A stretch of DNA of 64,000 nt from Acidobacteriota bacterium (GTDB taxonomy: Bacteria; Acidobacteriota; Terriglobia; Terriglobales; Acidobacteriaceae): positions 516 through 64,515 of the forward strand of contig QIAA01000051.1 in the NCBI GenBank assembly GCA_003224905.1, written 5' to 3'. The notes under the pieces are model-generated. The model was not told the origin of the DNA. It saw only the letters and a list, made by a program, of their open reading frames with translations, and did not search any database. Each line of letters starts with the position of its first letter. Within the stretch, counting starts at the first letter, position 1. Position numbers and translations under genes: made by a program. This document shows, one piece after another, positions 11,549 to 52,320 of this stretch.

Positions 11549-12432
11549 GTCCACAGGCAACGATCCCCGTCACCCACAACTCTACCGACGACCGTGCGGT
11601 ACGGGAGATTACCGTTGCTCACAGTCCTGATTCCGATGACGCCTTCATGTTCTACGGTCTCGCGACCAATAAGGTTCGGGTTCCGGGGCTGCACTTCACG
11701 CACACGCTGTGCGATATCCAAACGCTGAATCAAAAAGCGATGGAGGATGGCGGGCTGTACGACGTCACCGCTATCTCGTTTCACGCGTATCCATACATTC
11801 AGGGTAACTACGCCCTACTCTCCAGCGGAGGTAGTGTAGGCGAAGGCTACGGGCCAATGATCGTGGCCACGCAGGCGTACTCTGAGAGTGAAATCAAGCG
11901 GAAACGCATCGCGGTGCCGGGAAAACTTACCACGGCATATCTTGTGCTGCAGCTTTTTGCTCCCGGAATCGAAACACAGGTTGTGCCTTTTGATCAGATC
12001 ATTCCTCAGATTTCGGAAGGCCGCCAGGACGCGGGGCTAATTATTCACGAGGGACAATTGACGTATGCGAAATCCGGGCTGCACCGCGTTGTTGATCTGG
12101 GCAGATGGTGGCGCCGCGTGACTGGCCTCCCCTTGCCTTTGGGAGGCAATGCGATTCGCCGCAGTCTTGGAGCTGAGGTGATTGCGCAGGTTGCAACCGC
12201 ACTGCGGCAAAGTATTCAGTATGCGCTTGATCATCGCGAAGAAGCGCTGGCTTATGCGATGCAGTTTGCGCGTGATCTCGATCCGCAGCTCGCGGACAAA
12301 TTCGTCGGCATGTACGTGAACGAGCGCACGCTGGATTATGGGCCTGACGGGCGGGAGGCGATCCGCCGTCTGCTGGGGATGGGGCACAATGCCGGGATCA
12401 TCCCCCATCCGGTAAAAGTGGATTTCGTGTAG
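11545..12432 (+). CDS. MqnD-like protein (MqnA/MqnD VitK2_biosynth family; probable 1,4-dihydroxy-6-naphthoate synthase)
   Basis: The start ATG overlaps the bioY stop (ATGA). [18 protein letters not shown]...[10 protein letters not shown]...[11 protein letters not shown]. The track ORF from 11407 is an unsupported extension that overlaps bioY. Confidence 0.7.
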
Positions 12433-16681: not shown

Positions 16682-16724
16682 ATGACAGCTATCAGCCCAT
16701 ACGTGATGAAGAAGAAAATGCATA

Positions 16725-16762
16725 GATCCTTCGGCGCAAAGAACGCGCCTCAGGATGACAGG
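16725..16762 (+). repeat. Hairpin repeat, TCCTTCG...CTCAGGATGACA family (copy A)
   Basis: GATCCTTCGGCGCAAAGAACGCGCCTCAGGATGACAGG. Nested stems ATCCT/AGGAT and GGCGC/GCGCC, read by eye. Confidence 0.7.
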
Positions 16763-16818
16763 TTTAGAGGGACGGCGTTAACTGAAAGCTGATCGCTGAT
16801 GGCTGAAAGCTAAGACTT

Positions 16819-18126: not shown

Positions 18127-18501
18127 TTAGATCTCGATCATCACTTCGCCGTTCTCAATCTTTATCGGATACACGGCGACGCGGGCGTTTGGGTTGTGTG
18201 CGGCCTGGCCGGTCTGGGGATCGTATTGCCAGCCGTGCCAGGGGCAGACGACTTTGCCCTCTTCGATCATTCCCTGCCCCAGTGGACCGCCGTGGTGGAG
18301 ACAGACGTTGTCCATGGCGGAGATGGTGCCGTCTACGTTGGCGACGCAGATGATCCCGTCGCCAAGTTCGAATTCTTTGGCTTCGCCGGGGGCGGGGAGT
18401 TCGGATTGGGCAGCGAGTTTGACGAATGCCGGCATGGAAATCGCCGAGCTCTGCTCGGCTGGAACCTCCGAGTGCGCAACCAGGCTTGCGAGGGCGTCCA
18501 T
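18127..18501 (-). CDS. Rieske [2Fe-2S] domain protein
   Basis: CLHHGGPL...CPWHGWQY (CxH...CxxH). The start could instead be the internal Met at 18435. Confidence 0.8.
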   Translation of the reverse strand: MDALASLVAHSEVPAEQSSAISMPAFVKLAAQSELPAPGEAKEFELGDGIICVANVDGTISAMDNVCLHHGGPLGQGMIEEGKVVCPWHGWQYDPQTGQAAHNPNARVAVYPIKIENGEVMIEI

Positions 18502-18530
18502 CTCCCCCGTCTTCTCGTACCTTCTCTTTC

Positions 18531-18609
18531 GCCCCTTCGGGGCTCGCTCCCGTCCGACCTATGACCCAGGGCTCGCGCCCTGGGCTGCATTCTTCCGCCG
18601 CTTCGCGGC
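18531..18609. repeat. Composite GC-rich triple-hairpin element
   Basis: Three stems: GCCCCTTCGGGGC (18531..18543), CCCAGGGCTCGCGCCCTGGG (18565..18584) and GCCGCTTCGCGGC (18597..18609). The element lies between the nuoB stop and the Rieske start. Confidence 0.7.
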
Positions 18610-18658
18610 TGACTGGCAGATTCTTTCCGCTACGATACAGACCCCCAGGGGATCGCGG

Positions 18659-19219
18659 TTACTTTGGCTGCAGAGTCTGGGCGATCATGACCTGGCGCTT
18701 GAAATTCTCGACCATGTTTTCGTCCAGGCGGACTTCGGTCGGCTTCTTGGCCAATGACATCTGATCGATCTTGTCCTGCAACTTGAGCAGGGCGTAGAAC
18801 AGGTTCTCGGGACGCGGGGGGCAGCCGATTACGTAGACATCCGTGGGAACGATTTTGTCGACGCCTTGCAGAACGGCGTAGGTGTTGAACGGGCCGCCGA
18901 CCGAGGAGCAGGCGCCCATCGAGATCACCCACTTGGGGTCAGGCATCTGGTCGTAGATGCGCTTCAGCACCGGGGCCATCTTTAAGGTGACGGTTCCGGC
19001 AACGATCATCAGATCGCTCTGGCGGGGGCTGGGACGAAAGACTTCTGAGCCGAAGCGCGCGATATCGAAGCGGGCGGTCGATGAGGCGATCATTTCGATG
19101 GCGCAGCAGGCCAGGCCGAAGGTCATCGGCCAGACGGCGGATTTGCGCGCCCAGTTGAAGACGTAGTCGACCGTGGTGATCAGGAAATTCTTCTCGAACT
19201 TGTTCTGTAGCCAGGCCAT
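18659..19219 (-). CDS. nuoB: NADH-quinone oxidoreductase subunit B
   Basis: [14 protein letters not shown]...[13 protein letters not shown]...[11 protein letters not shown]...GCPPRPE carries the N2 cluster cysteines. No nuoA or nuoC gene is adjacent. Confidence 0.9.
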
Positions 19220-21756: not shown

Positions 21757-24060
21757 ATGGAGCGGACGCTGAGGCAATTTCGGATTCGGCCGGTTGTCTT
21801 GCAGTGGCTGATGATTGTATTGCTGGGACTCGGCCACTCGCGGGCGCAGAGCAGCCCAGCAGATCTGCTTCGCGGAGTAGTGAAGGATCAGACGGGCGCA
21901 GCCGTGGTTTTGGCGAAAGTGGTGCTGCGAAGTGAGCCGAACGCCACCCAGGCGACGAATGAAAGGGGAGAATTTGCTTTCTCGCCTGCTCCAAGAGAAA
22001 CGGCGCAGGTGGAGGTTTCGGCTAGTGGATTCGAGACGCGGATCGTGGAATGGCGGCCAGGATCGGACGGGGTGGAGATTGTTCTCAGGCCGGCAGTGCC
22101 GGGGCAAGAGATCACCGTCAGTGCCAACCGTACCAGCACCAGGTTGGTAGAGACGCCGACCAGCGTTGTCGTTCTTTCGCGGGATGATCTGAACGCAACC
22201 GCCGCTTTCAGAACGGATGACATGTTGCGCCAGGTGCCGGGCTTCAGCCTGTTCCGTCGAACTACAAGCCGGACCGCAAATCCGACGGCGCAGGGAGTGT
22301 CGCTGCGGGGATTGGGAGCGAGTGGCGCGAGCAGGGCTCTGGTGCTGGTGGACGGATTTCCGCTCAATGATCCATTCGGCGGATGGGTGTACTGGGACCG
22401 GGTGCCGCGGGAGGAGATCGAGAGCATCGAGGTGGCGGGCGGTGGAGCTTCGCACCTGTATGGTTCTGACGCTCTGGGCGGAGTTATCAGCATCCTGCGC
22501 AAGCCGGTGGACACGGATGAGCTTTCGTTGGAAGCTGCTTACGGAAACGAGAACACGCCTGACGTGTCGTTTGCCGGCAGCCGAAGGATGGGGCAGTGGT
22601 CCGGGGGATTGAGCGCGGAGCTATTCCGAACCGACGGATACATTGCAGTTCCCGGCGATCAAAGGGGGGTGGTCGATACGCCGGTGAACTCGCAGGACAT
22701 TACTGGCGGGGTGACGCTGCAAAGAAGGTTTGGAGACGTGGGATCAGTGTTTGTGAGGGGATCGGTTTTCGGAGAAGAGCGTAACAACGGAACACCGCTG
22801 CAAACCAACAGCACTACGATTCGCGAGCTGGATGTTGGCGGGGACTGGAATAGCAGGCTGGGTTCGTTTGCGCTGCGCGCGTACGCCGACCGGCAGCACT
22901 ATGCGCAGGTCTTCTCCAGCATTGCGGCGGACCGCAGCAGCGAGACGCCTACGCGAGATCAGCAAGTTCCGGCGCAACGGACAGGTTTTTCCGCGCAATG
23001 GCGTGACAGCATTGGAACCCGGCAGCATCTGGTTGCGGGGCTGGAAGAATGGAATACGCACGGCACAGATGATGAACTTGGGATATTCGTGGCCGGAGTG
23101 CCTACGGCCGAGTTGCTGGCTGGAGGGAGAGAAGTGAACTGGGGCGGGTACGCTGAGGATATTGTTCGACTCAGCTCGCGTTGGCTGCTGACCGTGAGCG
23201 GGCGCGTTGACCGCTGGCAGAATTTCGGTGCATTCACTTCGGGCCTGCAACCGATCGGTGGGGTTGCGGTGACGCCTTTAGCTGACCGAACTGAGAGATT
23301 CTTCAGTCCGAGAGTTGCCTTGCTGCATAAGCTGACGAATAGCATTTCGCTTACGGCGTCTGGCTATCGCTCTTTCCGCGCGCCCACTTTGAACGAGCTC
23401 TATCGCAGCTTTCGGGTTGGCAACGTGTTTACGCAATCGAATACTGATCTTCGGGCGGAACGGCTGACCGGAGCGGAAGGTGGAGCGATTCTTACCACCT
23501 GGGATCAACGGCTGATGCTGCGGAGCACGTTTTTCTGGAATGACATCACGCGTCCGGTGGGGAACGTAACACTCTCATCGACGCCGACTCTGATAACCAG
23601 AATGCGAGAGAACCTTGGGCGGACGCGCTCGCAGGGCGTGGAGCTCGAGGCTGCGGCACGCGTCAACAATGCACTGACGCTTTCCGGAGGCTATGAGTAC
23701 ACGGATGCGACGGTTGTCGATTTTTCAACTGCGCCAACTCTGGTTGGCCGGGATGTTCCGCAGATTCCGCGGAACGTATTCACTTTTCAGGCACGTTATT
23801 CCAAGCCTTTCATTCTGCTCGCAGTGCAGGGACGCTACATCGGCAATCAGTTTGATGATGACCAGAATTCGCTGCTGTTGCGGCGGTACTTCACTGTAGA
23901 CACCACGGTCTCGCACACGCTGCGGGCGGGAGCGGAGTTGTTCGTCGCCATCGAGAACCTATTCAATCGGCGCTACGACGTTGGGCGGACTCCGGTTCTT
24001 ACCATCGGCCCGCCGATCCTGGCGCGCGCGGGAGTAAGACTGCAGTTCGGCGGAAGATAG
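21757..24060 (+). CDS. TonB-dependent receptor with N-terminal carboxypeptidase-regulatory-like domain
   Basis: 767 aa with a signal peptide. GVVKDQTGAAV...GEF is the CarboxypepD_reg part. The plug is LRQVPGFS...SLRGLG...VLVDGFPLNDPFGG. The rest is C-terminal beta-barrel. Confidence 0.85.
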   Translation: MERTLRQFRIRPVVLQWLMIVLLGLGHSRAQSSPADLLRGVVKDQTGAAVVLAKVVLRSEPNATQATNERGEFAFSPAPRETAQVEVSASGFETRIVEWRPGSDGVEIVLRPAVPGQEITVSANRTSTRLVETPTSVVVLSRDDLNATAAFRTDDMLRQVPGFSLFRRTTSRTANPTAQGVSLRGLGASGASRALVLVDGFPLNDPFGGWVYWDRVPREEIESIEVAGGGASHLYGSDALGGVISILRKPVDTDELSLEAAYGNENTPDVSFAGSRRMGQWSGGLSAELFRTDGYIAVPGDQRGVVDTPVNSQDITGGVTLQRRFGDVGSVFVRGSVFGEERNNGTPLQTNSTTIRELDVGGDWNSRLGSFALRAYADRQHYAQVFSSIAADRSSETPTRDQQVPAQRTGFSAQWRDSIGTRQHLVAGLEEWNTHGTDDELGIFVAGVPTAELLAGGREVNWGGYAEDIVRLSSRWLLTVSGRVDRWQNFGAFTSGLQPIGGVAVTPLADRTERFFSPRVALLHKLTNSISLTASGYRSFRAPTLNELYRSFRVGNVFTQSNTDLRAERLTGAEGGAILTTWDQRLMLRSTFFWNDITRPVGNVTLSSTPTLITRMRENLGRTRSQGVELEAAARVNNALTLSGGYEYTDATVVDFSTAPTLVGRDVPQIPRNVFTFQARYSKPFILLAVQGRYIGNQFDDDQNSLLLRRYFTVDTTVSHTLRAGAELFVAIENLFNRRYDVGRTPVLTIGPPILARAGVRLQFGGR

Positions 24061-26425: not shown

Positions 26426-27616
26426 CTATGGAGAGGCGAGCTTCAGCACGTTTCCGCCACTATAGTCCAGAACGTACACTTCCCCGCTTTCATCCTGGCC
26501 GAAGGAACTGAGAGTTAACGCCTTCGAGAGCAGAGTGCTGCGCGTCCAGGTACCGGGAGCTGTCTCCTGCAATCCCCAGATCTTCCCCCCGCTGAGATCT
26601 CCAAAAACGTAGATACCGCTGAGGTTTGGAATGGCGCTGCCCTTGTATACGTAGCCTCCGATCACGGCACTGCCTTCATTGTGATCGTATTCGGCGATTG
26701 GCAAGATCTTATTGTTCATGTCGCAACCGCTGGATGGATTAAAGCAGTGGGCACCTTCCATGACACTCCAGCCGAAATTCCCGCCTTTCTGAAGGAGGTC
26801 GATTTCTTCAAACTGATTCTGGCCGACATCTGCACAGAAGAGGCGAGTTCCTTCCCGCTCGAAGGAAAAGCGCCAGGGATTGCGGAAGCCATATGCCCAG
26901 ATTTCCGGCAGCGCGCCTGAAGTCGAAACAAACGGATTGTCGGCAGGTATGGCGTACTGTAACCCCGGGCTGGTGTTACTCACATCAATACGGAGCATCT
27001 TCCCCAAGAGTGTGGCCAAGCTTTGTCCGTTACCGAAGGGATCGGGAGGGCCTGAATTTCCGCCATCGCCTAAGCCAATGTATAGAAGTCGGTCGGGACC
27101 AAAAGCCAACTGGCCACCTTTATGGTTTGGGAATGGCTGATCCACGAGCAGGAGAATGCGTTCGCTGTTCGGGTCGGCCTGGTCGGCGTTTGAAGAGGTA
27201 TGGTATTCGGCAATCACGGTCTGCATCTGAGATCCGGAGACACGGTCATAGTTCAAGTAAAAAAGATGATTTTGGCTGTAGTCGGGATGGAAAGCGAGAC
27301 CGAGCAACCCTTTCTCGCCGCCAAAATCGACTTTGCTGCTGATATCCAGGAACGGCACCGATACGAGAGCGCCGCCGGAAATGATGCGAATTGTGCCCGG
27401 CTGCTCCACGATGAAGAAGCGGCCAGATCCATCATTCGGGACCTGGAAGTCCACTGGGCTGGTCAGGCCACCCGCGACGTTGGTTAAGACCAGATTTGCG
27501 GGCGGCGGCGGAGGCGGGGTCATGGAATTCGACCGGCTTCCACCGCACGCTATTAGCGAGCTGCCGATTCCCAACAGAGCTGCGCCTAGAAGCATCCGAT
27601 ACGTTCTTGGCGTCAT
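26426..27616 (-). CDS. PQQ-dependent sugar dehydrogenase (soluble aldose dehydrogenase beta-propeller), lipoprotein
   Basis: Lipobox SSLIACGG. GLLGLAFHPDY...HKGGQLAFGPD..LYIGLGDGG...RNPWRFSF...DVGQNQFEEI is typical of the sGDH/YliI family. Confidence 0.8.
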   Translation of the reverse strand: MTPRTYRMLLGAALLGIGSSLIACGGSRSNSMTPPPPPPANLVLTNVAGGLTSPVDFQVPNDGSGRFFIVEQPGTIRIISGGALVSVPFLDISSKVDFGGEKGLLGLAFHPDYSQNHLFYLNYDRVSGSQMQTVIAEYHTSSNADQADPNSERILLLVDQPFPNHKGGQLAFGPDRLLYIGLGDGGNSGPPDPFGNGQSLATLLGKMLRIDVSNTSPGLQYAIPADNPFVSTSGALPEIWAYGFRNPWRFSFEREGTRLFCADVGQNQFEEIDLLQKGGNFGWSVMEGAHCFNPSSGCDMNNKILPIAEYDHNEGSAVIGGYVYKGSAIPNLSGIYVFGDLSGGKIWGLQETAPGTWTRSTLLSKALTLSSFGQDESGEVYVLDYSGGNVLKLASP

Positions 27617-28015
27617 GAGCAGTATTGGATGCAAATGGGACAGTAAACGACAAGAGATTCTGTCAATGCATGACAACAGCACGTTAGTGTCTGTCCAACC
27701 GCGTCGCGCGAGAATAATCGAGCATGGACCTCCTCGCCAAATCTCCTTCCACTCTTGGAAATAGCCAGTATTTTCGCGGCTTCTGAGTGGCTTCAGAAAT
27801 TAAAGCCGTGAGTACAACCCGAATGTACCGTTTTGAAAGTGACCTCTTGCGGTTCCCGTTGTGGACTTTGGGTACCTAGCTCCAATTACCGAGACGATAC
27901 ACACTGGCCCCGCTGCAACGTAGGCCGTTTTCAGTTATTCGCGTAACCGGACGGGTGAAGGCAGCTGATGTCAAATCCCCCGCCGTATCAGCATCTACGG
28001 CCAAAGAGGTCCTCT

Positions 28016-31000
28016 ATGAGAGATCTCGGTGCTCGCACGAAAGTAGTCCTCATACTTCTCGCAGTCCTGACAATGTTGGGCTGCCAGGCGCTGAACGCCA
28101 GCAAGCCCACGCAAGTCAGCCAATCCAGTCAGTCGAGCCAGACTGCTACGAGTCAAGACTCAGACCTTACTCCCAACATGGCGGTATTGGATTTTGGAAC
28201 CGTTACCGTCGGCGGCACGGAAGTATTGAGTAATACGGTGGTCAATAAGGGTGATTCGTCGATCAGGATCAAGAAAGCAGTACTTCGCAGATCGGAGTTC
28301 ACGATAGCAGGCGAGAAACTGCCTACGACGCTGGCGCCGGGTGAAAGTACATCGCTAGAAATTGCGTACAGTCCCCGCACGCATGGAAGCTCACAGGATA
28401 CGGTCACGCTTACAACCGACACCTCAAGCTTGTCCACATCATTCTCAGTGCGCGGACAATCCACGTCGCCTGGGCAACTGACCGTAAACCCAAGCAGCGT
28501 GACGTTTGGCATGGTGGCAGTGGGAAGCAGCCTGAGCAAGACAGCCACGCTATCAAATGTCGGGGGATCAGATCTCATAGTTAATCAGGTTAGTGCCAGC
28601 GACCTTAACTTTAGTGTGAGCGGAATTTCGGTTCCGCTGACCCTGGCGCCGGGCCAAAGTGTGGCCGTGGCGGTGACCTTCGCGCCAACGTCGAGCGGAG
28701 CTGATAGCGGTTCGGTTTCTATCATTGCGACGGTTTCAACTTCGGGCGGTGGCCACAAGGGCAAAGGTGGACACAGCTTGACGGCCGCTGCCAGCACATC
28801 GACGACGGCTACAGTCGCAGTCTCTGGCACGGGAGTCATGACGGGACAATTAGCCGCTGCGCCGGCCAGCATTGATTTCGGAAAGGTGCAGATCAACAGC
28901 AGCCCGCAGGTGGTGACCGGGACTTTGACCAACTCAGGCGGGACCAGCGTTAATATCAATACGGCGACGATTACCGGAGCCGGGTTTACGCTGAGCGGAT
29001 TGAGTTCGTCGCTCGCGCTTGCTCCGGGTGGAAGCGTTAGCTTCAGCGTAAGCTTTGCTCCTCAGACTTCCGGAGCGGTGTCGGGCAACATTGCCGTAAG
29101 TAGTGATGCTGCTAATTCCTCACTCAACGTGCCTCTTGCAGGTACAGGAGTCACGCCGGGGTCGGTGGTTTCAAGCCCTTCCAGTCTCGGGTTTGGGACC
29201 GTGCAGGTTAACACTAGTAAGACCCTCTCAGCCACGGTTACAAATTCAGGAGGAACGTCGGTCACAATCAGCCAGGCCACGGCGACAGGTACTGGATATG
29301 GTCTCGGAAATTTCAGCGTGCCGCTGACATTGTCGGCAGGACAGAGCAAGACGTTCAGCGTAACGTTTGCGCCTCAGTCGAGCGGATCGGCGAGCGGAAG
29401 CGTTTCAATTATCAGTGATGCTTCCGACCCCACGATGAATGTGCCGCTGTCCGGTACCGGCGCAACCCCAGGAACTCTTGGAGCAAACCCGGGATCTTTG
29501 AGTTTCGGGAACGTGCAGGTCGGCAGTTCGCAAACTTTGCAGGAAACCGTAAGCAACTCTGGGGGCTCAAGTGTGACCATCACTCAGGCGAACGTGCCGA
29601 GTGGGTTCACGGTTACCGGGCTTACACTGCCCGCGACAGTCGGCGCTGGGCAAAGTACAAGCTTTAGCGTGAAGTTCAGTCCGCAAGCTGGAGGGCCGGC
29701 AAGCGGAAATCTTTCCATCATCAGCGACGCGTCGAACCCGACGCTTGGCGTGTCCCTCTCAGGAGCTGGTACGACACCTGGTTCGCTTGCCGCAAGTCCG
29801 GCAAGTTTAAGCTTCGGGAACGTGCAGGCCGGCAATTCGCAAACTCTGCAGGAAACCGTAACCAACTCCGGTGGTTTAAGTGTGACCATCACTCAGGCGA
29901 ACGCGCCGAGTGGGTTCACGGTCACGGGGCTTACCCTACCGGCGACAGTGGGAGCTGGACAAAGTACGAGTTTCAGCGTGAAGTTCAGTCCGCAATCTGG
30001 AGGGCCGGCAAGCGGAAATCTCTCTATAATCAGCGACGCTTCGAACCCGACGCTTAGCGTGCCCCTCTCCGGATCAGGCACGACGCCAGGTTCGCTTGCC
30101 CCAAGTCCGGCAAGTCTGAGTTTCGGAAGTGTGCAGGTTGGCGATACGAAGAGCCTGCAAGAAACTCTAACCAATTCCGGCGGGTCAACCGTCAGTGTCA
30201 CACAGGCTAACTCCACGAACGCTGCTTTCGTCGTGAGCGGCCTAACTTTGCCGCTGACACTGGGGGCGGGGCAGAGCGCGAGTTTCAATGTCAGCTTTAA
30301 TCCGCAATCTGGCGGGCCGGCGAGCGGAAAGGTATCGGTCCTCAGCGACGCGTCGAATTCCACACTGGACATCTCTCTTTCAGGAACCGGAACCACGCCC
30401 GGGGTGCTAGGTGTGACGTCGTCTTCTCTCAGCTTTGGCAGCGTGGCGATTAACAGCACTGGGAGTAAAACGGAAAGCCTGACCAACTCGGGCGGTACGG
30501 CTGTGAAAGTCAGTCAGGCGAATGTCACTGGCACGGGCTTCAGCATAACTGGGCTAGCTTTGCCTCTGACCCTAAATCCAGGACAGAGCTTTACCTTCGG
30601 AGTGAACTTTGCACCTACATCAGCCGGCAGTGTCAGCGGGAGTATCGGATTTGTGTCGGATGCTTCGAATCCGAATTTAAGTGTGACACTTTCAGGCACG
30701 GGAGCGAGTGTGGGTCAGTTGACAGTTTCGCCTGCGACTCTGAGTTTCGGCAGCGTCATCGTGGGCCAGAATAAGACTATGAGCGCCACATTGAGTGCGA
30801 CCGGCGCCAACGTAACAATCTCCTCTGCCGGGTTTAACACTTCGGAATTCACTCTCAGCGGAGTCTCATTCCCACTGACGGTCACGGTCGGACAGAGCGC
30901 GACTGTGAGCGTGGTATTCACGCCGCAGGCGAGCGGCACGGCATCGGACAGCGTTTCGTTCGCCAGTAATGCATCCAACTCACCGGCTGTCGAAGCCTTG

Positions 31001-31270
31001 AGCGGCAGCGGCACACCGCCGCCGCAGCACAATGTGAATCTCTTATGGAGCGCGAGCAGTTCCAGCGTGGTGGGCTACAACGTGTACCGTGGCTCGAAAT
31101 CGGGAGGCCCCTACAGCAAGATCAACTCCGTGCTTGATGCGAGTACCTCTTATACCGACAGCTCTGTGCAGGCAGGCACAACTTACTTCTATGTGAGCAC
31201 AGCGGTCGATGGAAATGGCATGGAGAGCGGCTTCTCAAACCAGGTGCAAGCGGCAATTCCCACACCATAA
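28016..31270 (+). CDS. Paralog 1: secreted lipoprotein with nine ~100-aa Ig-like (choice-of-anchor-D / ASH-like) repeats and a C-terminal FN3 domain
   Basis: AAGAGG sits before the ATG at 28016. Lipobox TMLGC. Repeat consensus G.L...P.SL.FG.V.VG.S....TLTNSGG..V.I......G.GF...GL.LP.TL..GQS..F.V.F.P...G..SG......DA.N. Tail H.V.L.WSASSSSVVGYNVYRGSKSGGPYSKINS...TYFYV. Confidence 0.85.
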   Translation: MRDLGARTKVVLILLAVLTMLGCQALNASKPTQVSQSSQSSQTATSQDSDLTPNMAVLDFGTVTVGGTEVLSNTVVNKGDSSIRIKKAVLRRSEFTIAGEKLPTTLAPGESTSLEIAYSPRTHGSSQDTVTLTTDTSSLSTSFSVRGQSTSPGQLTVNPSSVTFGMVAVGSSLSKTATLSNVGGSDLIVNQVSASDLNFSVSGISVPLTLAPGQSVAVAVTFAPTSSGADSGSVSIIATVSTSGGGHKGKGGHSLTAAASTSTTATVAVSGTGVMTGQLAAAPASIDFGKVQINSSPQVVTGTLTNSGGTSVNINTATITGAGFTLSGLSSSLALAPGGSVSFSVSFAPQTSGAVSGNIAVSSDAANSSLNVPLAGTGVTPGSVVSSPSSLGFGTVQVNTSKTLSATVTNSGGTSVTISQATATGTGYGLGNFSVPLTLSAGQSKTFSVTFAPQSSGSASGSVSIISDASDPTMNVPLSGTGATPGTLGANPGSLSFGNVQVGSSQTLQETVSNSGGSSVTITQANVPSGFTVTGLTLPATVGAGQSTSFSVKFSPQAGGPASGNLSIISDASNPTLGVSLSGAGTTPGSLAASPASLSFGNVQAGNSQTLQETVTNSGGLSVTITQANAPSGFTVTGLTLPATVGAGQSTSFSVKFSPQSGGPASGNLSIISDASNPTLSVPLSGSGTTPGSLAPSPASLSFGSVQVGDTKSLQETLTNSGGSTVSVTQANSTNAAFVVSGLTLPLTLGAGQSASFNVSFNPQSGGPASGKVSVLSDASNSTLDISLSGTGTTPGVLGVTSSSLSFGSVAINSTGSKTESLTNSGGTAVKVSQANVTGTGFSITGLALPLTLNPGQSFTFGVNFAPTSAGSVSGSIGFVSDASNPNLSVTLSGTGASVGQLTVSPATLSFGSVIVGQNKTMSATLSATGANVTISSAGFNTSEFTLSGVSFPLTVTVGQSATVSVVFTPQASGTASDSVSFASNASNSPAVEALSGSGTPPPQHNVNLLWSASSSSVVGYNVYRGSKSGGPYSKINSVLDASTSYTDSSVQAGTTYFYVSTAVDGNGMESGFSNQVQAAIPTP
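29143..30690 (+). repeat. Five head-to-tail 309-nt coding repeats inside paralog 1
   Basis: Unit boundaries (S/A)G(T/A/S)G.TPG recur at 29143, 29452, 29761, 30070 and 30379. The units at 29581 and 29890 differ at about 12 of the 100 nt I compared by eye. Confidence 0.85.
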
Positions 31271-31293
31271 CGAGAACGTGAGGATCGCAGACG

Positions 31294-31320
31294 GGCCCGG
31301 AAACTCCGGGCCTATTTTTT
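31294..31320 (+). terminator. Rho-independent terminator after paralog 1
   Basis: GGCCCGG AAACT CCGGGCC followed by TATTTTTT. Confidence 0.8.
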
Positions 31321-31454
31321 GGCTAAGACCGCTCCATGCGGTGTTCCTTTTAGGAACAATCCCAGAAAACGGGAACTATCTGTGACACGAAAGTGTCAGG
31401 CTGGACCAGGGATATCTTCTCGCCTGATTCAGAGCCTAGAAGACTGTGGGTGCT

Positions 31455-33051
31455 ATGCGTACACCTCGTCGCACCCTCAACTCCGTCGTTCTTCTCTGCG
31501 CAACTTCAATGATGATTCTGTCGGTTGCCGCCCCGAAGTCTGCGATGGCTGCCACTGCGGGATTGGAGTGCAAACCAAGCAATCTCTGGTTCAAACAGGT
31601 CACGGTTGGCACGGAGAAAAACTTCAACGCGAGCGTCACGAACATTGGATCGAGCAACATCACAGTTTCTCAGGTGAGGGTGCAGGGCGCGGGTTTCCGC
31701 GTGGGTGCCGCGAACCTGCCCTGGACTCTGGCTCCGGGGCAGAAAGTGTGGTTTCAAGTCAGTTTCGCACCGCAGACGGCTGGTCATGTCGACGGGACAA
31801 TCGGATTCACCAGCTCAGCCAGCACTTCGGAGCAGTACCTGTTGAATGTTCATGGAACGGCTGTTGCTGGCAATGTGCTTAACCCCTATCCGGTAGGCAT
31901 CAGCTTCGGGAACGTGTCGGTGGGCACGACGAGCCAGCGAACTGAGGTTTTGACAAATTCCGGCACTTCGAACATCAACATTTCGCAGACGAATGTGGCT
32001 GGTTCGGGATTCAGGGTGAGCGGACTGTCAACACCGTTGACACTGGCCGCCGGGCAGAAAGTCAGCTTCATCGTCTCGTTTATACCCCAACTGACTGGAA
32101 TTACCAGTGGGGCATTATCGGTGATCAGCGATGCCGCCGATTCCACACTGACTGTAGCGCTATCGGCGACCGGGGTTTCTGCCGGCGCATTGACGCCAGC
32201 GGCGGCCAGCATCAGCTACGGCAGCGTCCAGGTCGGAAACAGCATTTCAAGGCCGGCAACGTTAACCAATAGTGGCACTTCGGATGTGACGATTTCGCAA
32301 GCCAGCGTTTCCGGCGCGGGCTTCAGCATCAGCGTTGGTTCCACCGGTCACACTGACGCCCGGGCAGAGCTACACGTTCCAAACGGCATTTGCTCCGAAC
32401 GCGGCGGGCAGTGTGAATGGCGCAATTACCGTGGCATCGAATGCGTCAAATACGACAGTCGATATTTCACTATCGGGCACAGCGACCGCAAGCGGCCTTT
32501 TGACGCTCAGTCCCGCGAGCCTAAATTTCGGCAGCGTGGTCGTCGGCCAGAACAAGAGCATGAGCGCGACGCTGGGTGCGTCCGGTTCGAGTGTGACGCT
32601 ATCTTCGGCTACGGCGAGCAGCCCGGAGTTCACCATGGGCGGTCTGTCCTTCCCTTACACGATCGCAGCCGGGCAAAGCGCGCAAGTGAATATCACGTTC
32701 AAACCTCAGAGCAGCGGCTCAGCTTCAGGCAGCGTTTCGTTCAACAGCGATGCATCTACTACGCCAATGACGGAAACTCTGCTGGGAACCGGCACGGCTG
32801 CAGTCCAGCATCATGTTGATCTCTCCTGGAATGCCAGCACGTCAACCGTAACGGGCTACAACGTGTACCGGGGTTCGCAGGCGGGTGGACCGTACAGCAA
32901 AATCAATTCGCTGGCCAACGCGGCAACCAATTACAGCGACAGCAGTGTCCAGGACGGGCAAGTTTATTTTTATGTGACGACGGCTGTCGATTCGACTGGA
33001 TCTGAGAGCCTCAATTCCAATGAAGTATCAGCCTCCGTGCCGAGCCCATAA
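31455..33051 (+). pseudogene. Paralog 2: four Ig-like repeats plus FN3, interrupted by a frameshift near 32334
   Basis: Track ORFs 31446..32819 (frame 0) and 32335..33051 (frame 1) join into one protein of this family. GAGFSIS then continues as LVPPVTLTPGQSYTF only in the +1 frame. This could also be a sequencing error. Confidence 0.6.
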
Positions 33052-33069
33052 CCGAGGTCAGTGACCGCG

Positions 33070-33079
33070 GTTTGCAAAC
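33070..33079. promoter_or_regulatory. Perfect palindrome GTTTGCAAAC, ending 67 nt before the paralog 3 start
   Basis: Read directly. The same 10-mer, preceded by G, recurs at 34171..34180. Confidence 0.4.
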
Positions 33080-33145
33080 TTGTGAGTCTCTAAATGAACT
33101 ATTGAGACCTTCTCTCCTCAGGTCAGAAGTGACAAAACTCGCTGC

Positions 33146-34129
33146 ATGCCCTTCCCCCAAGAAGCGCGAAAGCTGCTGGTGTTCGCAGGCGTGCTGCCGC
33201 TGGTGATTTGTGGAACTCTTAGCGTACCGGCGGCGGCGCGCTCGAGTTCAGCGACAACCCAACAAAAACTGGTGGCGAATCCGGCGAGCATCAGTTTTGG
33301 CAGCGTACAAGTCAGCAGTACCAAGAACTCAGGCGAGACGCTGACTAACGCCTCCAACTCAAAACTGACGGTTTCGCAGGCGACAGTGACTGGAGCGGGG
33401 TTCAGCTTTAGCGGCCTGGCGCTGCCCCTCACGCTTACGCCAGGACAGAGTTTCACTCTGAATGTCAGCTTCACACCAAAGTCAGCCGGCAGTGCCAGCG
33501 GGAGCTTGTCATTCAACTGCAAGCCTTCGAACTTCACGATCACAGTGCCGTTATCAGGGTCAGGAATAAGCGGAGGCCAATTGGGAATCTCTCCCACAAG
33601 CTTGAACTTCGGAAGCGTTGCCTTGGGAAGCAGCAAGAGTATGAGCGCAACGCTAAGTGCCTCGGGAAGCAGTGTCACCATCTCGTCGACGACCGTGAAC
33701 AGTTCCGAGTTCAAGTTAAGCGGGATGTCGTTTCCCTACACCCTTGCAGCCGGGCGGACCGCGGCCGTGACCGTGAGCTTTGTCCCGCAAGTCAGCGGGA
33801 CAGCCTCTGCGAATCTCTCGTTCAACAGTAATGCGACGAGCACAAGTGTAGAAGCGCTGAGCGGCACAGGGACGACATCAACGCAACATCGCGTGTCGCT
33901 GTCATGGAAATCCAGCAGCTCGCTGGTAGTTGGCTACAACATTTACCGCAGCTCGAAATCCGGAGGCCCATTCACTCGGCTGAATTCCGTACTCGATGCA
34001 AGCACAACATACGTCGACAGCTCGGTGCTAAACGGACAGAGCTATTACTACGTGACCACGGACGTGGACAGCAAAGGAATGGAGAGTGGCTTCTCGAACC
34101 AAGTGCAGGTCACGATACCAACTTCGTGA
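33146..34129 (+). CDS. Paralog 3: two Ig-like repeats plus FN3, secreted
   Basis: 327 aa with a signal peptide. It has the same repeat and tail motifs (HRVSLSWKSSSSLVVGYNIYRSSKSGGPF...SYYYV). Confidence 0.8.
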   Translation: MPFPQEARKLLVFAGVLPLVICGTLSVPAAARSSSATTQQKLVANPASISFGSVQVSSTKNSGETLTNASNSKLTVSQATVTGAGFSFSGLALPLTLTPGQSFTLNVSFTPKSAGSASGSLSFNCKPSNFTITVPLSGSGISGGQLGISPTSLNFGSVALGSSKSMSATLSASGSSVTISSTTVNSSEFKLSGMSFPYTLAAGRTAAVTVSFVPQVSGTASANLSFNSNATSTSVEALSGTGTTSTQHRVSLSWKSSSSLVVGYNIYRSSKSGGPFTRLNSVLDASTTYVDSSVLNGQSYYYVTTDVDSKGMESGFSNQVQVTIPTS

Positions 34130-34170
34130 CCTGCACCAATTCATGGTCAAGTTCGTTCCTAGAGAAGCTG

Positions 34171-34180
34171 GTTTGCAAAC
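34171..34180. promoter_or_regulatory. Perfect palindrome GTTTGCAAAC, ending 66 nt before the paralog 4 start
   Basis: Read directly. The spacing to the start codon nearly equals that of the copy at 33070. Confidence 0.4.
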
Positions 34181-34245
34181 CTTCGATTAGCGAATGTCCC
34201 ACTCAGACCTACTCTGGAGCTAAAGGAGCTTCGAAACTGTCCACC

Positions 34246-35502
34246 ATGCGATTTTCCCCCATCGCAACCCGAGGACTACTTGCCTTTTCTGTGGGCCTGC
34301 TGCTTACGCTGGCGGCCGAGCCGGTGTATGCGTCAGCGGAATTGTCGTCCAAACCGCAAGCCTTGTGGTTCGGACTGGTGGAGGTGGGAAAGGCAAAGAC
34401 CTCATCTCTCACGATCGTGAACACGGGTACCACGCGGTTCACGGTTTCGAAGGTGACCAAGAGCGCTTTCCAATTCGTTCCATCAGGGTACAGCCTGCCC
34501 TTCACGTTAGCTGTGGGACAGAGGAAGACGATCAAGGTTGCATTCAAACCTTCGGCGAAGCGGGAGGTAGATGGGACGATAACGTTCTCCGGCACTACGG
34601 CGGGACTGACAGTTCATGTTCATGGCACGGGTGTTACAGGCTACCTCAAAGGGAACCCGAGCAGCATTTCTTTCGGAACCGTTCAGGTGGGGTACCAGAA
34701 GAGTGCCCAGATTACGTTGACGAACAACGTCAGCCATGAGGTGGGGATACATCGATTGTACGTATACGGTACAGGATTCAGCTACAGCGGGCTGAGCGCT
34801 CCGATCTATCTGAGGCCGGGCCAGAGCTACACTTTCACCGCTATCTTCAGGCCGAAGTCGGCGGGGACCATCGGTGGAAAGATCTCGGTTGTATCGAGTG
34901 CACCGAATTGGAATGTCGTTGTTGCACTCTGGGGCACAGGCGGCTCCACCGGCAATCTGAGCCTGGGCGCTTCCACGCTTAATTTTGGCAACGTGAGCGT
35001 CGGCACAAGTAAAAGCGTCGGCGGAAGCCTCGCCGCAAGTGGAAAGAGCGTGACAGTGTCATCTGCCACAACGTCCAGTTCCGAGTTCACTCTAACCGGG
35101 CTTCGGTTCCCGTTTACTATTCCCGCAGGTCAGCACGTTTCATTTTCCGCGAAGTTCACGCCGCAGAGCAGCGGCACTGCTTCCGGAAGGATTTCATTCA
35201 AGAGCAACGCCTCGAATTCGCCCACGATCGAAAATGTCACCGGGAGCGGGATCAGCGCCGGGCAGCACCGTGTGACGCTCTCCTGGAAGGCAAGCGGGTC
35301 ACTTGTGGTGGGGTACAACATTTACCGCAGCGGCACGTCGGGCGGGCCGTACAACAGAATCAATTCTGTCCTGCAGCGGTCCACGTCTTACACGGACGCC
35401 TCGGTTCAAGCGGGAAAAACGTACTATTACGTCACTACTGCGGTTACGTCAGGAGGAAAAGAAAGCGGCTTTTCGAACCAGGTTCGGGCAGTCATTCCCT
35501 GA
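34246..35502 (+). CDS. Paralog 4: three Ig-like repeats plus FN3, secreted
   Basis: I place the start at the ATG at 34246 (MRFSPIATRGLLAFSVGLLLTLAAEPVYA signal). The track ORF start at 33904 overlaps paralog 3 in another frame. Confidence 0.8.
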   Translation: MRFSPIATRGLLAFSVGLLLTLAAEPVYASAELSSKPQALWFGLVEVGKAKTSSLTIVNTGTTRFTVSKVTKSAFQFVPSGYSLPFTLAVGQRKTIKVAFKPSAKREVDGTITFSGTTAGLTVHVHGTGVTGYLKGNPSSISFGTVQVGYQKSAQITLTNNVSHEVGIHRLYVYGTGFSYSGLSAPIYLRPGQSYTFTAIFRPKSAGTIGGKISVVSSAPNWNVVVALWGTGGSTGNLSLGASTLNFGNVSVGTSKSVGGSLAASGKSVTVSSATTSSSEFTLTGLRFPFTIPAGQHVSFSAKFTPQSSGTASGRISFKSNASNSPTIENVTGSGISAGQHRVTLSWKASGSLVVGYNIYRSGTSGGPYNRINSVLQRSTSYTDASVQAGKTYYYVTTAVTSGGKESGFSNQVRAVIP

Positions 35503-35515
35503 TGTGCAACCATGC

Positions 35516-35543
35516 AAAAAGGCGGGACGCCGGTGGTCCCGCC
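35516..35543 (-). terminator. Rho-independent terminator of the PEP-CTERM gene (hairpin shared with the convergent paralog 4)
   Basis: Stems GGCGGGAC and GTCCCGCC enclose a 7-nt loop. On the minus strand the hairpin is followed by TTTTT. Confidence 0.7.
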
Positions 35544-35561
35544 CTGGAATTCATTACTTGA

Positions 35562-36248
35562 CTACGAAGATTTTCGAAGCCGCAGTCCTATGGCACCGAA
35601 AAGAGTGGCGCCGCTCGGAAGTAAGAAGGCTAGCGACGCTGGTTCAGGAACTTCGGTCGGCGGCGTAGCGGTTGTGCCGAACTGGACCACAACGTTACTA
35701 AATTGTGAGTCTGCCGTAACGCCTGGCACGTAGAGCGTGAAGGAAACAGTTCCGACGAGAAAGGGATTGTGAGGGCCATTGTTGTTGATTGAAGAGTTTG
35801 CGTTCGCATACAAACCCCAGCCACTGCCGCCCACTATCGTCATCTCTGGCGCAGTCTGGTTCTGAACCGGTGAAGCGCAGATCACGCACAGGGTCAAGCC
35901 CGAGCCGAAGTTGCTGGCTACCCAGCCGGTGCTCTGAATGCCCTGCAAAAAGCCCAAGTGGCCGTAGATATCGGTCGTTTGTCCCGAGCTTGAAGACAGC
36001 GCAGCCCCGGAGCCGGTGTACCCCGTAACATCGAAGTAAAGGCCGCTAATATTGCTGCCAACGCTGGTCACCTGGGAATTCGAGAGAGTGTTCGTGATGG
36101 TGACGGTGACGTAGTTATTGGAGGTTACGTTCAAAGTGACAAGCGCGTTCTGATACGAGATCGTGTCTGCGTGCACTGGCACAGTTGCCAGCGCGCTGAG
36201 TCCGAGCACTAGGGTTAGAACCTTGGCCACGCCGAAGGACTTTTGCAT
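35562..36248 (-). CDS. PEP-CTERM sorting-domain surface protein
   Basis: C-terminus VPEPASLAFLLPSGATLFGAIGLRLRKSS (PEP, then a TM helix, then a basic tail). N-terminal signal MQKSFGVAKVLTLVLGLSALATVPVHA. An alternative start is at 36266. Confidence 0.8.
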   Translation of the reverse strand: MQKSFGVAKVLTLVLGLSALATVPVHADTISYQNALVTLNVTSNNYVTVTITNTLSNSQVTSVGSNISGLYFDVTGYTGSGAALSSSSGQTTDIYGHLGFLQGIQSTGWVASNFGSGLTLCVICASPVQNQTAPEMTIVGGSGWGLYANANSSINNNGPHNPFLVGTVSFTLYVPGVTADSQFSNVVVQFGTTATPPTEVPEPASLAFLLPSGATLFGAIGLRLRKSS

Positions 36249-36663
36249 TGAGCTTCCGCTCCTCATCGAAAACCTGGGATTTTGTGGAAGTCAACTCGGT
36301 AATCGGAGGGGGCCCGGAGGGATACCAGAGTAACGTACCAGCAATACGTAAGCATCCTGTTTGCCATACTGAGGTCTGAAAATGCAGATCGGAAGAGGGG
36401 CTAAGGTACTTGTTTTGTTAAAAATAAAAACTCTGCCTTGATCCTGAGAAGATGCATCCAAGGTGCCTGCAAATTCCATTGCAGGTTAAGTGCAGCAACT
36501 TGCGCTGTGATAAAGCCTCTTTTCAGGCGCAAATTCAGTTCGTCTACAAACGCCGCTTCGCCTATTACTGAAGTCTTGGGCCCCCAACGCTAGGAGTGCA
36601 TGTCTGTACGTTCTCTAGCGCCTCCGAGACGGGTCTCGGAAAATAAGTCTCAGTTCTTCAACG

Positions 36664-37317
36664 ATGCACAGGCAGATCAATCTGGCAGTGTTGTCTCTCG
36701 CACTTGCGACGCTGACCGCGTGCGGGGGAGGACTGGCCGCGACCAACAATTCGCCGGCCCCACCCCCGGGAACGCTGACTATCTCACCTACGACTCTGAA
36801 CTTCGGCACGGTCACAGTGGGAAAAAGCAAGACGATGACTGGGACACTTAGCGCCAGCAGTGATGTGACCGTGTCTTCGGCGGATTGGAATGGCAGCGGC
36901 TATTCAGTAAGCGGCATTACGTTCCCGACGACTGTCGCTGCCGGCAACAGTGTGTCGTTTGGGGTAACGTTCACTCCCGCATCCTCAGGCAGTTCCACGG
37001 GCAGCATCTCATTTTTAAGCGACGCTTCGAATTCTCCTGCTTCAGAGACGCTAACCGGCAGCGGAGCCCAAACCTCGCAGCACAGCGTTGATTTGTCATG
37101 GGATCCAAGCTCTTCGCAGGTAGCCGGATACAACATTTATCGTGGCACTCGTGCGGGCGGGCCTTATTCGCGGCTCAATTCGGCGCTTCAGGCGAGTACG
37201 AGCTTTACTGACGGCGGCGTCCAGTCAGGGCTGACTTACTTTTACGTGGCCCGCTCGGTCGATTTCAATTCCCAGGAAAGCGTTCCCTCGAATGAAGTAA
37301 GGGCCGCGATTCCGTGA
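36664..37317 (+). CDS. Paralog 5: one Ig-like repeat plus FN3, lipoprotein
   Basis: 217 aa. Lipobox LTACGG. It holds the single terminal-type repeat and the tail HSVDLSWDPSSSQVAGYNIYRGTRAGGPYSRLNS...TYFYV. Confidence 0.8.
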   Translation: MHRQINLAVLSLALATLTACGGGLAATNNSPAPPPGTLTISPTTLNFGTVTVGKSKTMTGTLSASSDVTVSSADWNGSGYSVSGITFPTTVAAGNSVSFGVTFTPASSGSSTGSISFLSDASNSPASETLTGSGAQTSQHSVDLSWDPSSSQVAGYNIYRGTRAGGPYSRLNSALQASTSFTDGGVQSGLTYFYVARSVDFNSQESVPSNEVRAAIP

Positions 37318-37338: not shown

Positions 37339-37911
37339 TTATTCGAACACCTCAGCGTCACGGAAGCAAAGGCCCATGCGATCTTTCGCCGAGACGATCG
37401 GCTCGCCCTGAATCTGCCAGTCGATCTTCAGATGGGGATCATTCCAGGCCAGCGTGCGTTCACATTCGGGTTCGTGGAAATCCGTAGCCTTGTAGAGAAC
37501 GTGCGCGCCTTCCTCTGAAAGGACGGCAAAGCCGTGTGCCAGTCCCGCTGGAATCCAGAGCATGTGCTTGTTCTCGCCCGACAGCCTGGCGCCATGCCAG
37601 CAGCCAAAGCTGAGAGAACTTCGCCTCAGGTCCACGGCCACGTCGAAAATCTCACCCGAAACTACCCTAATCAGTTTGCCTTGCGGGCGTCGGACCTGAT
37701 AGTGCAGACCGCGCACGACATTTCGGGCAGAAAAGGAATGATTGTCCTGCACAAAATCTTGCGAAATGCCAACCTCGGCCATGCTTTTCTTATTGAAACT
37801 TTCGAGAAAGAATCCTCGAGTGTCACGAAAAACTCGCGGCTCGATTAAGAGCACTCCTTTTAGGGGTGTCTCTGAAACGTTCATGCTGGAACTGATCCTC
37901 TCGACGGCCAT
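37339..37911 (-). CDS. rfbC: dTDP-4-dehydrorhamnose 3,5-epimerase
   Basis: GVLLIEPRVFRDTRGFFLESF...VQDNHSFS...VRGLHYQ...KLIRVVSGEIFDVAVDLR. The true start may be the internal Met at 37884. Confidence 0.9.
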   Translation of the reverse strand: MAVERISSSMNVSETPLKGVLLIEPRVFRDTRGFFLESFNKKSMAEVGISQDFVQDNHSFSARNVVRGLHYQVRRPQGKLIRVVSGEIFDVAVDLRRSSLSFGCWHGARLSGENKHMLWIPAGLAHGFAVLSEEGAHVLYKATDFHEPECERTLAWNDPHLKIDWQIQGEPIVSAKDRMGLCFRDAEVFE

Positions 37912-38820
37912 TCAGAACACCTTGTCCCGGAGCAGTTGCAGAAGGTAGGAGCCATATCCATTGTTTTGCATCGAGGAGGCTGTGGCTTGTAATTGCTCGG
38001 CAGTGATGTAGCCGTAGCGGTAAGCAATTTCTTCTGGACATGCGACCATAAGGCCCTGGCGCGTTTCCAAGGTTTGAATGAAAAACGAGGCTTCGAGCAT
38101 GGCATCGTGAGTGCCGGTGTCGAGCCAGGCCATGCCGCGGCCCATGACCACGACTTCCAATTGCCCACGGCGAAGATATTCTTTGTTGACGTCGGTGATT
38201 TCCAGTTCCCCGCGAGCGGAAGGTTTCAGAGACTTGGCGATGGAGACCACATGTTCATCGTAGAAGTAAAGACCGGTTACCGCGTACCTGGATTTCGGAG
38301 CTTTGGGCTTTTCCTCCAAGCTTAAGGCTTTGCCCTTTGGGTCAAATTCAACTACGCCGTAACGCTCAGGGTCATTTACAGCATAAGCAAACACCGACGC
38401 TCCAAGGCGCTGTTGCACAGCTTGCGTCAAAGTTTTGGCCAGGTCATGGCCGTGGAAGATGTTGTCTCCAAGCACCAGGGCACAATGAGAGCCGGCGATA
38501 AATTTCTCTGCAATCAGGAAGGCCTGTGCAATACCTTCCGGCCTGGGCTGGGCGGCATAGTGCAAAGTGAGGCCAAGACAAGATCCGTCGCCGAGGAGAT
38601 GCTGGAACTTGGAGATGTCCTGCGGAGTAGAGATAACCAATATGTCTCGAATACCCGCCAGCATGAGAGTTGAAAGCGGGTAGTACACCATGGGCTTGTC
38701 ATAGATGGGCAACAAACTCTTGCTTACCGCGTGAGTCACCGGATAGAGGCGGGTTCCAGATCCACCGGCCAGAATGATGCCTTTATAGTGAGGTGACCCG
38801 CCGGAATGCGCAATCGCCAT
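37912..38820 (-). CDS. rfbA: Glucose-1-phosphate thymidylyltransferase
   Basis: [17 protein letters not shown]...[33 protein letters not shown]...LGDNIF is the canonical RmlA pattern. Confidence 0.95.
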
Positions 38821-51149: not shown

Positions 51150-51203
51150 TCTCCTCCTGGGGCAGCGTTACTGGAACCGCAAAAAAGCAAACCGCACAAA
51201 TGA

Positions 51204-52304: not shown

Positions 52305-52320
52305 TCTGCGCCTCCCTCCT

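Follow-up and report, generated by a model that had tools for sequence, protein, structure and literature searches.

A conserved, ordered set of choice-of-anchor-D/FN3 paralogs in Terriglobia, putatively encoding rod-like envelope proteins

The 64,000-nucleotide stretch of contig QIAA01000051.1 from an Acidobacteriota bacterium (GenBank assembly GCA_003224905.1) that we analyzed, here called the window, contains a tandem array of five genes, g1 to g5. Their products consist of one to nine choice-of-anchor-D repeats followed by a C-terminal tail resembling FN3. Comparison with other genomes indicates that the array is an expanded instance of a conserved Terriglobia paralog set and not a recent local duplication of the gene for its smallest, 217-amino-acid (aa) member, since array members are usually closer to counterparts in other genomes than to their own neighbors and since the first and last gene types are conserved. 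Tentatively, we propose that the products are rod-like envelope proteins, which would present or cross-link a partner via a common C-terminal head at graded distances and would be tied to an exosortase-linked glycopolymer locus. We consider this explanation plausible, though we would stop short of calling it probable.

Repeat and tail architecture

A first-pass annotation, made from the letters alone, had described five same-strand genes with 9, 4, 2, 3, and 1 repeats of about 100 aa. Open reading frame (ORF) listing and translation of the window confirmed all five on the forward strand at the coordinates given there, apart from the reading frame of g2 (Table 1). The repeat counts also held. 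All five genes exceeded the curated cutoff (45 bits) of the NCBIfam model NF012200 (choice_anch_D), with 459.4 bits for g1, 122.0 and 76.7 bits for the N- and C-terminal parts of g2, and 97.5, 134.1, and 52.1 bits for g3, g4, and g5, respectively. This model marked 9, 3 + 2, 2, 3, and 1 stretches, one of those in g2 being split by a frameshift, and a repeat hidden Markov model (HMM) built from g1 detected 9, 4, 2, 3, and 1 full-length domains, 19 in total, each with E ≤ 1e-20.

The repeats had been likened to choice-of-anchor-D and ASH (HYDIN-type) domains, an identity that further models and a predicted structure corroborated. Pfam ASH (PF15780; gathering threshold, 27) scored 268.8 bits in g1, 77.4 and 46.1 in g2, 62.6 in g3, 89.6 in g4, and 35.6 in g5, while PF22544 (HYDIN_VesB_CFA65-like_Ig) reached at least 25.9 bits against a threshold of 25.5, and Pfam matches to Cep192_D4 and DUF1573 (PF07610) overlapped the same repeat stretches. 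AlphaFold2 modeled the g5 product as two all-beta sandwiches behind a disordered tether (pLDDT, 86; pTM, 0.55), in keeping with the beta-sandwich structure expected for the 217-aa core; residues 140 to 215 were all-beta with a pLDDT of ~94. When this model was compared with PDB structures using Foldseek, it retrieved ASH domains of HYDIN and the ciliary central apparatus, the SPD-2 domain of CEP192, and Ig-FN3 tandems.

In an alignment of the 19 repeats, the five terminal repeats formed one clade with 45 to 59% mutual identity, bearing out the view that they constitute a distinct subtype common to all five genes. The first repeats of g1, g2, and g4 also grouped together. Repeats 5 to 7 of g1 are recent duplicates (87% protein identity between repeats 5 and 6, otherwise 64 to 68%), and the 309-nt tandem repeat that spans them is the sole recent DNA-level duplication in the array.

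The C-terminal tails (~88 aa) are 51 to 67% identical to one another. Searched in isolation with Pfam fn3 (PF00041), the tails of g1 to g5 gave 21.9 bits, no match, 14.5, 24.0, and 18.6 bits, respectively, all below the threshold of 25. However, when a profile made from the alignment of the five core modules, i.e., terminal repeat plus tail (profile A2), was searched against PDB sequences, its positions 106 to 181 matched the solved FN3 structures 3mpc_A ("Fn3-like protein"; E = 2.3e-13), 5g56_A (7.6e-12), and FN3con (4u3h; 1.4e-3). Because of these matches, the earlier suggestion of an FN3-like tail is supported for all five proteins despite the subthreshold Pfam scores, and we refer to the tail as a predicted FN3 domain.

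Distribution and ancestry of the paralogs

The core module was found at no fewer than 530 places in species-representative genomes. The family statistics in this study come from the best 79 of these loci, which were scanned with our own HMMs for repeats and FN3. All 79 belong to Acidobacteriota, most of them being labeled Terriglobia or Terriglobales. A database search with g5 returned 1192 relatives at E ≤ 1e-5, mostly 200 to 380 aa long, and a 62%-identical relative (P0052) already carries the NCBI name "choice-of-anchor D domain-containing protein." The FN3 domain forms the extreme C terminus, with an [IV]P or [IV]PxP ending in 142 of 151 relatives. Complete proteins with 1, 2, 3, 4, 5, 6, 7, 8, 9, and 10 repeats numbered 33, 36, 32, 15, 11, 10, 5, 1, 6, and 1, respectively.

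Of the 155 terminal repeats, 154 had another terminal repeat as their closest relative at a different locus, and the terminal subtype is therefore ancient. As a rule, two to five genes form an array on one strand, and long genes usually precede short ones: in 66 adjacent pairs, the upstream gene had more repeats in 52, an equal number in 7, and fewer in 7. A long-to-short arrangement like that of the window recurs across the class Terriglobia. Between the core module of an array member and its best counterpart in another genome, identity averaged 72%, versus 54% for the best neighbor, and the other-genome match was closer than any array neighbor in 96% of cases. Furthermore, first-type genes matched first-type genes in 37 of 47 cases, and last-type genes matched last-type genes in 39 of 47. 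By these measures, array members are ancient, separately conserved, position-specific paralogs.

The 217-aa protein had been regarded as a common core from which the longer proteins arose by N-terminal accretion. The shared core of terminal repeat and FN3 stands, but accretion is too simple a description of ancient paralogs with internal turnover. When the internal repeats of g1 were compared with those of six relatives with 9 or 10 repeats, no diagonal signal of positional orthology was detected, and simple stepwise accretion was rejected on this ground. Since internal repeats lack positional orthology, we conclude that protein length changes by their turnover between a distinct first repeat and a fixed terminal module.

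The same lability of repeat number, from 1 to 10, and the missing positional orthology of internal repeats could mean that the arrays have no coordinated function and arose incidentally, through tandem duplication and slippage of repeats within a generic secreted Ig-like family. In line with this, g2 is frameshifted in part of the population (see below), suggesting that it is dispensable. We nevertheless find such an origin quite unlikely, given the ancient and position-specific paralogs, the strongly nonrandom order by length (52 pairs versus 7), the lipobox pattern kept by position, and the conserved neighbors.

Export signals and composition

The search for export signals relied solely on visual inspection and a regular expression (lipobox pattern, [LVI][ASTVI][GAS]C). 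An export signal had been claimed for every array gene, and motif inspection agreed with this. The lipobox pattern fits g1 (LTMLGC/Q), in which a Ser/Thr/Gln-rich tether follows, and g5 (LTAC/G), but not g2, g3, and g4, which carry signal-peptidase-I type signals by eye (AMA/A, AAA/R, and VYA/S, respectively). Across the 79 loci, the heuristic detected a lipobox in 22 of the 48 genes in first position and in 28 of the 48 in last position, but in none of the 19 in between. The motifs of g1 and g5 recur as well, "...GCQGL" (GCQ(G/A)L) among first genes and "...CGGG" among last genes.

Ser plus Thr make up 26 to 33% of the array proteins and charged residues 6 to 11%, a composition that fits extracellular proteins, and each protein contains 2 to 18 N-x-S/T sequons. 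All five end at the predicted FN3 domain with [IV]P or [IV]PxP, without a PEP motif, transmembrane (TM) helix, or basic cluster. The [IV]PxP ending was considered as a truncated PEP-like sorting motif and discarded, as the motif falls where the FN3 G strand ends and is accompanied by neither a TM helix nor a basic tail.

Genomic neighborhood of the arrays

In the window, the array is preceded by a glucose/sorbosone-dehydrogenase (GSDH) gene and followed by rmlC and rmlA (Table 1), beyond which DegT, S-methyltransferase, and ROK genes are located. Related loci show comparable arrangements: the order is GSDH, three array genes with 9, 2, and 2 repeats, rmlC, rmlA, rmlB-like, and exosortase in locus L009, and GSDH, three array genes with 10, 4, and 3 repeats, and exosortase in L036 (L numbers denote related loci).

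Table 1. Features of the array region of the window, with predicted domains and signals
Feature	Positions	Strand	Description	Basis
GSDH gene	26426-27682	-	Glucose/sorbosone-dehydrogenase gene upstream of the array	ORF listing
g1	28016-31270	+	1084-aa lipoprotein by motif; 9 choice-of-anchor-D repeats and C-terminal FN3; "first/long" class	Intact ORF
Tandem repeat	29497-30188	+	309-nt unit, 2.2 copies, 85% match; spans g1 repeats 5-7	TRF
Terminator-like hairpin	31293-31322	+	9-bp stem with 7 G-C pairs, then T-run; 23 nt past g1 stop	Consensus scan
g2	31455-33051	+	4 repeats and FN3; signal-peptidase-I type signal; frameshifted	ORFs and HMMs
g3	33146-34129	+	327 aa; signal peptide, 2 repeats and FN3	Intact ORF
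g4	34246-35502	+	418 aa; signal peptide, 3 repeats and FN3	Intact ORF
PEP-CTERM gene	35562-36266	-	234 aa, C terminus VPEPASLAFLLPSGATLFGAIGLRLRKSS; embedded in the array	Weak XDD4 family match
g5	36664-37317	+	217-aa lipoprotein by motif (LTAC/GGG); one terminal-type repeat and FN3; "last/short" class	Intact ORF
rmlC	37339-37911	-	Convergent with g5	Pfam dTDP_sugar_isom on identical L001 gene
rmlA	37912-38820	-		Pfam NTP_transferase on identical L001 gene

An exosortase gene lies within 10 kb of the array in 21 of the 79 loci, in 12 of which it is convergent with the last array gene and less than or equal to 150 bp away; for rmlA or rmlC, the number of loci at this distance is 23. When all ORFs were clustered without bias, the commonest genuine neighbors were rmlA (24 loci), exosortase (22), rmlC (20), and rmlB-like genes (17 + 13), ahead of a 188-aa membrane protein (17), a FemAB-like protein (8), and a 461-aa protein (8). 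Only ~1 to 2% of random 20-kb windows would be expected to hold an exosortase or rml gene if a few copies per ~5-Mb genome are assumed; because of this low expectation, the association of arrays with these genes looks strong.

The neighboring exosortases pass the generic model TIGR02602 (109 to 118 bits versus 105.55), but stay below the cutoffs of the named subtypes (126 to 142 versus 208 bits for XrtA; 155 to 163 versus 300 for XrtC). FemAB-like, GT2, and PMT_2-like genes adjoin the exosortase in related loci, the last in L036 only, and the FemAB-like neighbor scores 97.7 bits against the TIGR03019 cutoff of 260. An XrtA/PEP-CTERM exopolysaccharide (EPS) locus, as defined by exosortase A plus markers such as TIGR03019, was found neither in the window nor in the related loci.

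The PEP-CTERM protein encoded inside the array scores 23.9 bits with NF045504 (cutoff, 40). Its homologs are confined to the close relatives L001 to L008, with none at the 79 related loci even at E ≤ 10, and other PEP-CTERM-like genes near arrays occur at only two loci, L013 and L074. As a conserved partner of the array, the gene was accordingly rejected as lineage specific. This affects the link to EPS that had been drawn from it and from the rml genes: rml synteny (23/79) and exosortase (21/79) speak for such a link, whereas the PEP-CTERM argument does not carry, the gene being restricted to L001 to L008.

The rml genes, directly downstream in the window and present at about one-quarter of the loci, would also suit surface glycoproteins of the S-layer or sheath type, whose own Ser/Thr-rich repeats would be glycosylated from the dTDP-rhamnose made by RmlA/C/B. 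The Ser/Thr content and the sequons described above agree with this, as do the PMT_2-like GT-C glycosyltransferase and GT2 genes adjoining the exosortase in L036. However, the PMT_2-like gene occurs in that one locus, no oligosaccharyltransferase is conserved with the array, and high Ser/Thr is frequent in bacterial beta-sandwich repeats, so that we rate glycosylation of the array proteins themselves as possible but unlikely.

Alternatively, the array proteins could be lipoproteins that capture glycans for nutrient acquisition, analogous to SusE/SusF, with the terminal repeat and FN3 as a carbohydrate-binding tip. The closest solved relatives of the tail are indeed FN3 domains of glycan-active enzymes (3mpc, 5g56, and the pectate lyase 3b4n), and the window holds many genes for sugar catabolism as well as one for a TonB-dependent receptor (21757-24060). 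Such a role is nevertheless decidedly doubtful: neither a TonB-dependent receptor nor a glycoside hydrolase is conserved beside the arrays, receptor clusters being nonadjacent and present at ~9 to 10 of 83 loci, and the conserved neighbors (rml, exosortase, and FemAB-like) are biosynthetic, not catabolic.

Periplasmic chaperones or scaffolds of the PapD-like kind, serving exosortase substrates or polymer-export machinery in the manner of TMEM131 or pilus chaperones, were considered too. They would share the ASH/PapD-like fold, and they would account for the short lipoprotein gene adjoining the exosortase in 12 loci and for a membrane-anchored FN3 gene that is apparently cotranscribed with the exosortase in L022 and L029. 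We regard a chaperone function as very unlikely, since members with 9 or 10 repeats would, when extended, far exceed the width of the periplasm, as judged from domain size; the conserved neighbors include no gene for a PEP-CTERM cargo; and the fold likeness is generic to Ig-like sandwiches.

Two further gene types were observed at related loci and are absent from the window. The ~188-aa membrane protein, which has no Pfam or NCBIfam match, is encoded beside or inside arrays, often divergently from a small FN3 protein (examples are L070 12208-12780(+), L022 9020-9550(+), and L010 9132-9704(-)). Small proteins with an N-terminal membrane anchor, a linker, and an FN3 domain of the array-tail type are encoded at 17 loci, e.g., at L022 8211-8786(-) and 11455-11979(-), L029 8253-8831(-) and 11475-11918(-), L060 12363-12833(-), and L070 11520-12089(-). 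Some of them share a conserved THRHTGIL motif behind the anchor, and in L022 and L029 such a gene immediately precedes the exosortase gene in the same orientation.

Candidate role at the envelope

From domain content and gene context, we infer a surface location, binding by the head, and a link to EPS. According to the model that we favor, the proteins would be rods of 1 to 10 choice-of-anchor-D (ASH/PapD-like) sandwiches ending in the head formed by terminal repeat and FN3. The long first and short last members would be tethered to the membrane by an N-terminal lipid, and the middle members would be exported without a lipid anchor. The shared head would be the working end, with one kind of binding partner for the whole set. 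Most plausibly, this partner would be a glycopolymer at the cell surface or outside the cell, or else the proteins that are inserted into such a glycopolymer by an exosortase. The stalks, with their variable repeat numbers, would present or cross-link the partner at differing distances from the membrane, and the set would act as a scaffold or adhesive component of a capsule or EPS matrix. The EPS of Granulicella contains rhamnose (PMC5259719), which is compatible with the model, but not specific to it.

Several observations weigh against the rod-like scaffold. Only 37 of the 79 loci, under half, have an rml or exosortase gene within 10 kb, and Pfam searches of 30 further ORFs found no exosortase in the 64-kb window. 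The enrichment estimate rests on assumed copy numbers, not on sampled control windows. The array proteins do not appear to be canonical exosortase substrates, since none carries a PEP-CTERM signal, and the lipobox calls made by regular expression would fit a surface or a periplasmic location alike. Finally, the rml neighborhood is no proof of a role in EPS, because rml genes also serve the synthesis of the lipopolysaccharide O antigen.

A more far-reaching idea, which we consider rather unlikely, is that the array belongs to an undescribed exosortase-associated surface system of Terriglobia, made up of the choice-of-anchor-D/FN3 set, the small membrane-anchored FN3-only proteins, the 188-aa protein, and an unclassified exosortase clade. 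The terminal repeat and FN3 would then be a docking or recognition module for a partner or a cargo signal other than PEP-CTERM, and the layering of capsule or matrix would be determined by the graded lengths of the stalks.

Relation to known systems

All 19 array repeats match the models of choice-of-anchor D proteins (NF012200, PF15780, PF22544, and PF07610) above curated cutoffs. The name derives from homologs with varied C-terminal sorting signals, whereas the array proteins have none. In addition, the array family differs from other choice-of-anchor D proteins by a fixed end of terminal repeat and predicted FN3, by an N-terminal lipobox or signal peptide, and by ordered multigene sets, which among the best 79 loci are restricted to Acidobacteriota. 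While the constituent domains are known, we found no literature on the subfamily with its fixed head, on the ordered arrays, or on their adjacency to exosortase genes.

The eukaryotic ASH proteins HYDIN, CEP192 (SPD-2 domain), and TMEM131 share the beta-sandwich fold, the best Foldseek matches being ciliary central-apparatus chains, 7ptb and 6fvi (CEP192), and 2e6j (PapD-like domain of HYDIN). The likeness is one of fold only, with 9 to 16% identity; these proteins act in the context of cilia and centrosomes and lack an FN3 end piece.

XrtA-type exosortase loci associated with EPS were reportedly described by Haft. Exosortase/PEP-CTERM loci of this type resemble the arrays in that exosortase, FemAB-like, and glycosyltransferase genes lie beside many arrays and a PEP-CTERM gene lies inside that of the window. 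They differ in that the array proteins have no sorting signal, the exosortases reach no cutoff of a named subtype, and the window is without an exosortase.

SusE/SusF-like lipoproteins of Bacteroidota and Ig-like adhesins combine an N-terminal anchor, a tandem beta-sandwich stalk, and a distal functional module. The general design of the array proteins is alike, but a SusC/D-type partner is not conserved at the arrays, and the likeness is one of design only. The S-layer glycosylation (slg) clusters of Geobacillus and Paenibacillus have rml genes beside S-layer genes. Here too, a gene for a surface structural protein would stand beside rmlA/C/B; this is an analogy only, as protein families and envelope type differ and no oligosaccharyltransferase is conserved at the arrays.

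Terriglobia are among the most abundant soil bacteria, and their persistence has been attributed to capsule and EPS. To our knowledge, their envelope and matrix proteins are almost unstudied. A widespread, ancient, and ordered gene set that often lies near exosortase and dTDP-rhamnose genes offers a testable candidate for a structural matrix protein. Moreover, the label "choice-of-anchor D domain-containing protein" hides a well-defined subfamily with a fixed C-terminal head and position-specific paralogs, which could merit family models of its own. Until its function is demonstrated, the gene set has modest practical value.

Sequence variation and transcription of the array

The first-pass annotation treated g2 as one continuous gene and overlooked a frameshift. 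The g2 span measures 1597 nt, a length not divisible by 3, and is covered by two overlapping ORFs (31446-32819 and 32335-33051). Comparison with near-identical contigs located the lesion to a 2-nt deletion (GGG to G) at ~32334, in the Gly codon of GFSISGL in repeat 3. Intact g2, called as 556 or 532 aa, is present in L001 and L004 (99.8 to 99.9% identical contigs), whereas L002 and L003, near-identical contigs from different assemblies, carry the frameshifted allele. Since the allele recurs in these two independent assemblies, we rejected a sequencing error as its cause and conclude that the frameshift is a real population polymorphism.

Apart from ~155 extra nt inside the near-identical repeats of g1, contig L002 is 100% identical to the window. 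The extra stretch breaks the reading frame there (L002 ~1767-1868, corresponding to window ~29563-29617, g1 repeats 5 and 6) and reflects either a misassembly caused by the repeats or another disrupted allele.

Among the other array genes, an identical-length 1084-aa g1 is called in L001 and L009 and a 418-aa counterpart of g4 in L008, and the nearest relatives of g5 are the last genes of the arrays in L012, L013, L036, and L019. The contigs closest to the window come from soil metagenomes.

The hairpin and T-run behind g1 suggest, as a consensus match only, that g1 may be transcribed apart from g2 to g4, among which the spacers measure 95 to 117 nt. Terminator-like sites in the array region did not exceed the shuffled expectation, and a scan for sigma-70 promoters yielded 2 sites versus 3.8 expected.

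Long antisense ORFs cross the repeat region, including window 29893-30486(-) and 33118-33714(-) and L002 3742-4942(-), and their cluster recurs in 55 loci. In L002 and L003, the gene caller annotated four small antisense genes where the frameshifted g2 lies. Because of the repeat composition, we regard the antisense ORFs through the repeats as artifacts and not as genes.

Other features of the window

The G+C content of the window is ~56%. An Acido-Lenti-1 sRNA motif (Rfam RF01687) was detected at 18565-18610(+) (54.4 bits; gathering score, 37; E = 1.7e-9). Since the motif lies inside the ORF 18194-18757, which has no Pfam match, this ORF is possibly not a real gene. Menaquinone synthesis by the futalosine route is indicated by three genes (3000-3860(+), 5535-6581(+), and 11407-12432(+)), two of them matching VitK2_biosynth (MqnA/MqnD type) and one encoding a radical-SAM protein of the CofH/MqnC type. 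A DUF1800 gene (662 aa) and a DUF1501 gene (411 aa) of unknown function lie next to each other at 14693-18054(+). Finally, a sugar-catabolism cluster on both strands at 50202-61692 comprises two PfkB kinases, an FGGY kinase, a DeoC/LacD aldolase, an amidohydrolase, a LacI-type regulator, and a 752-aa melibiase/GH31-like hydrolase.

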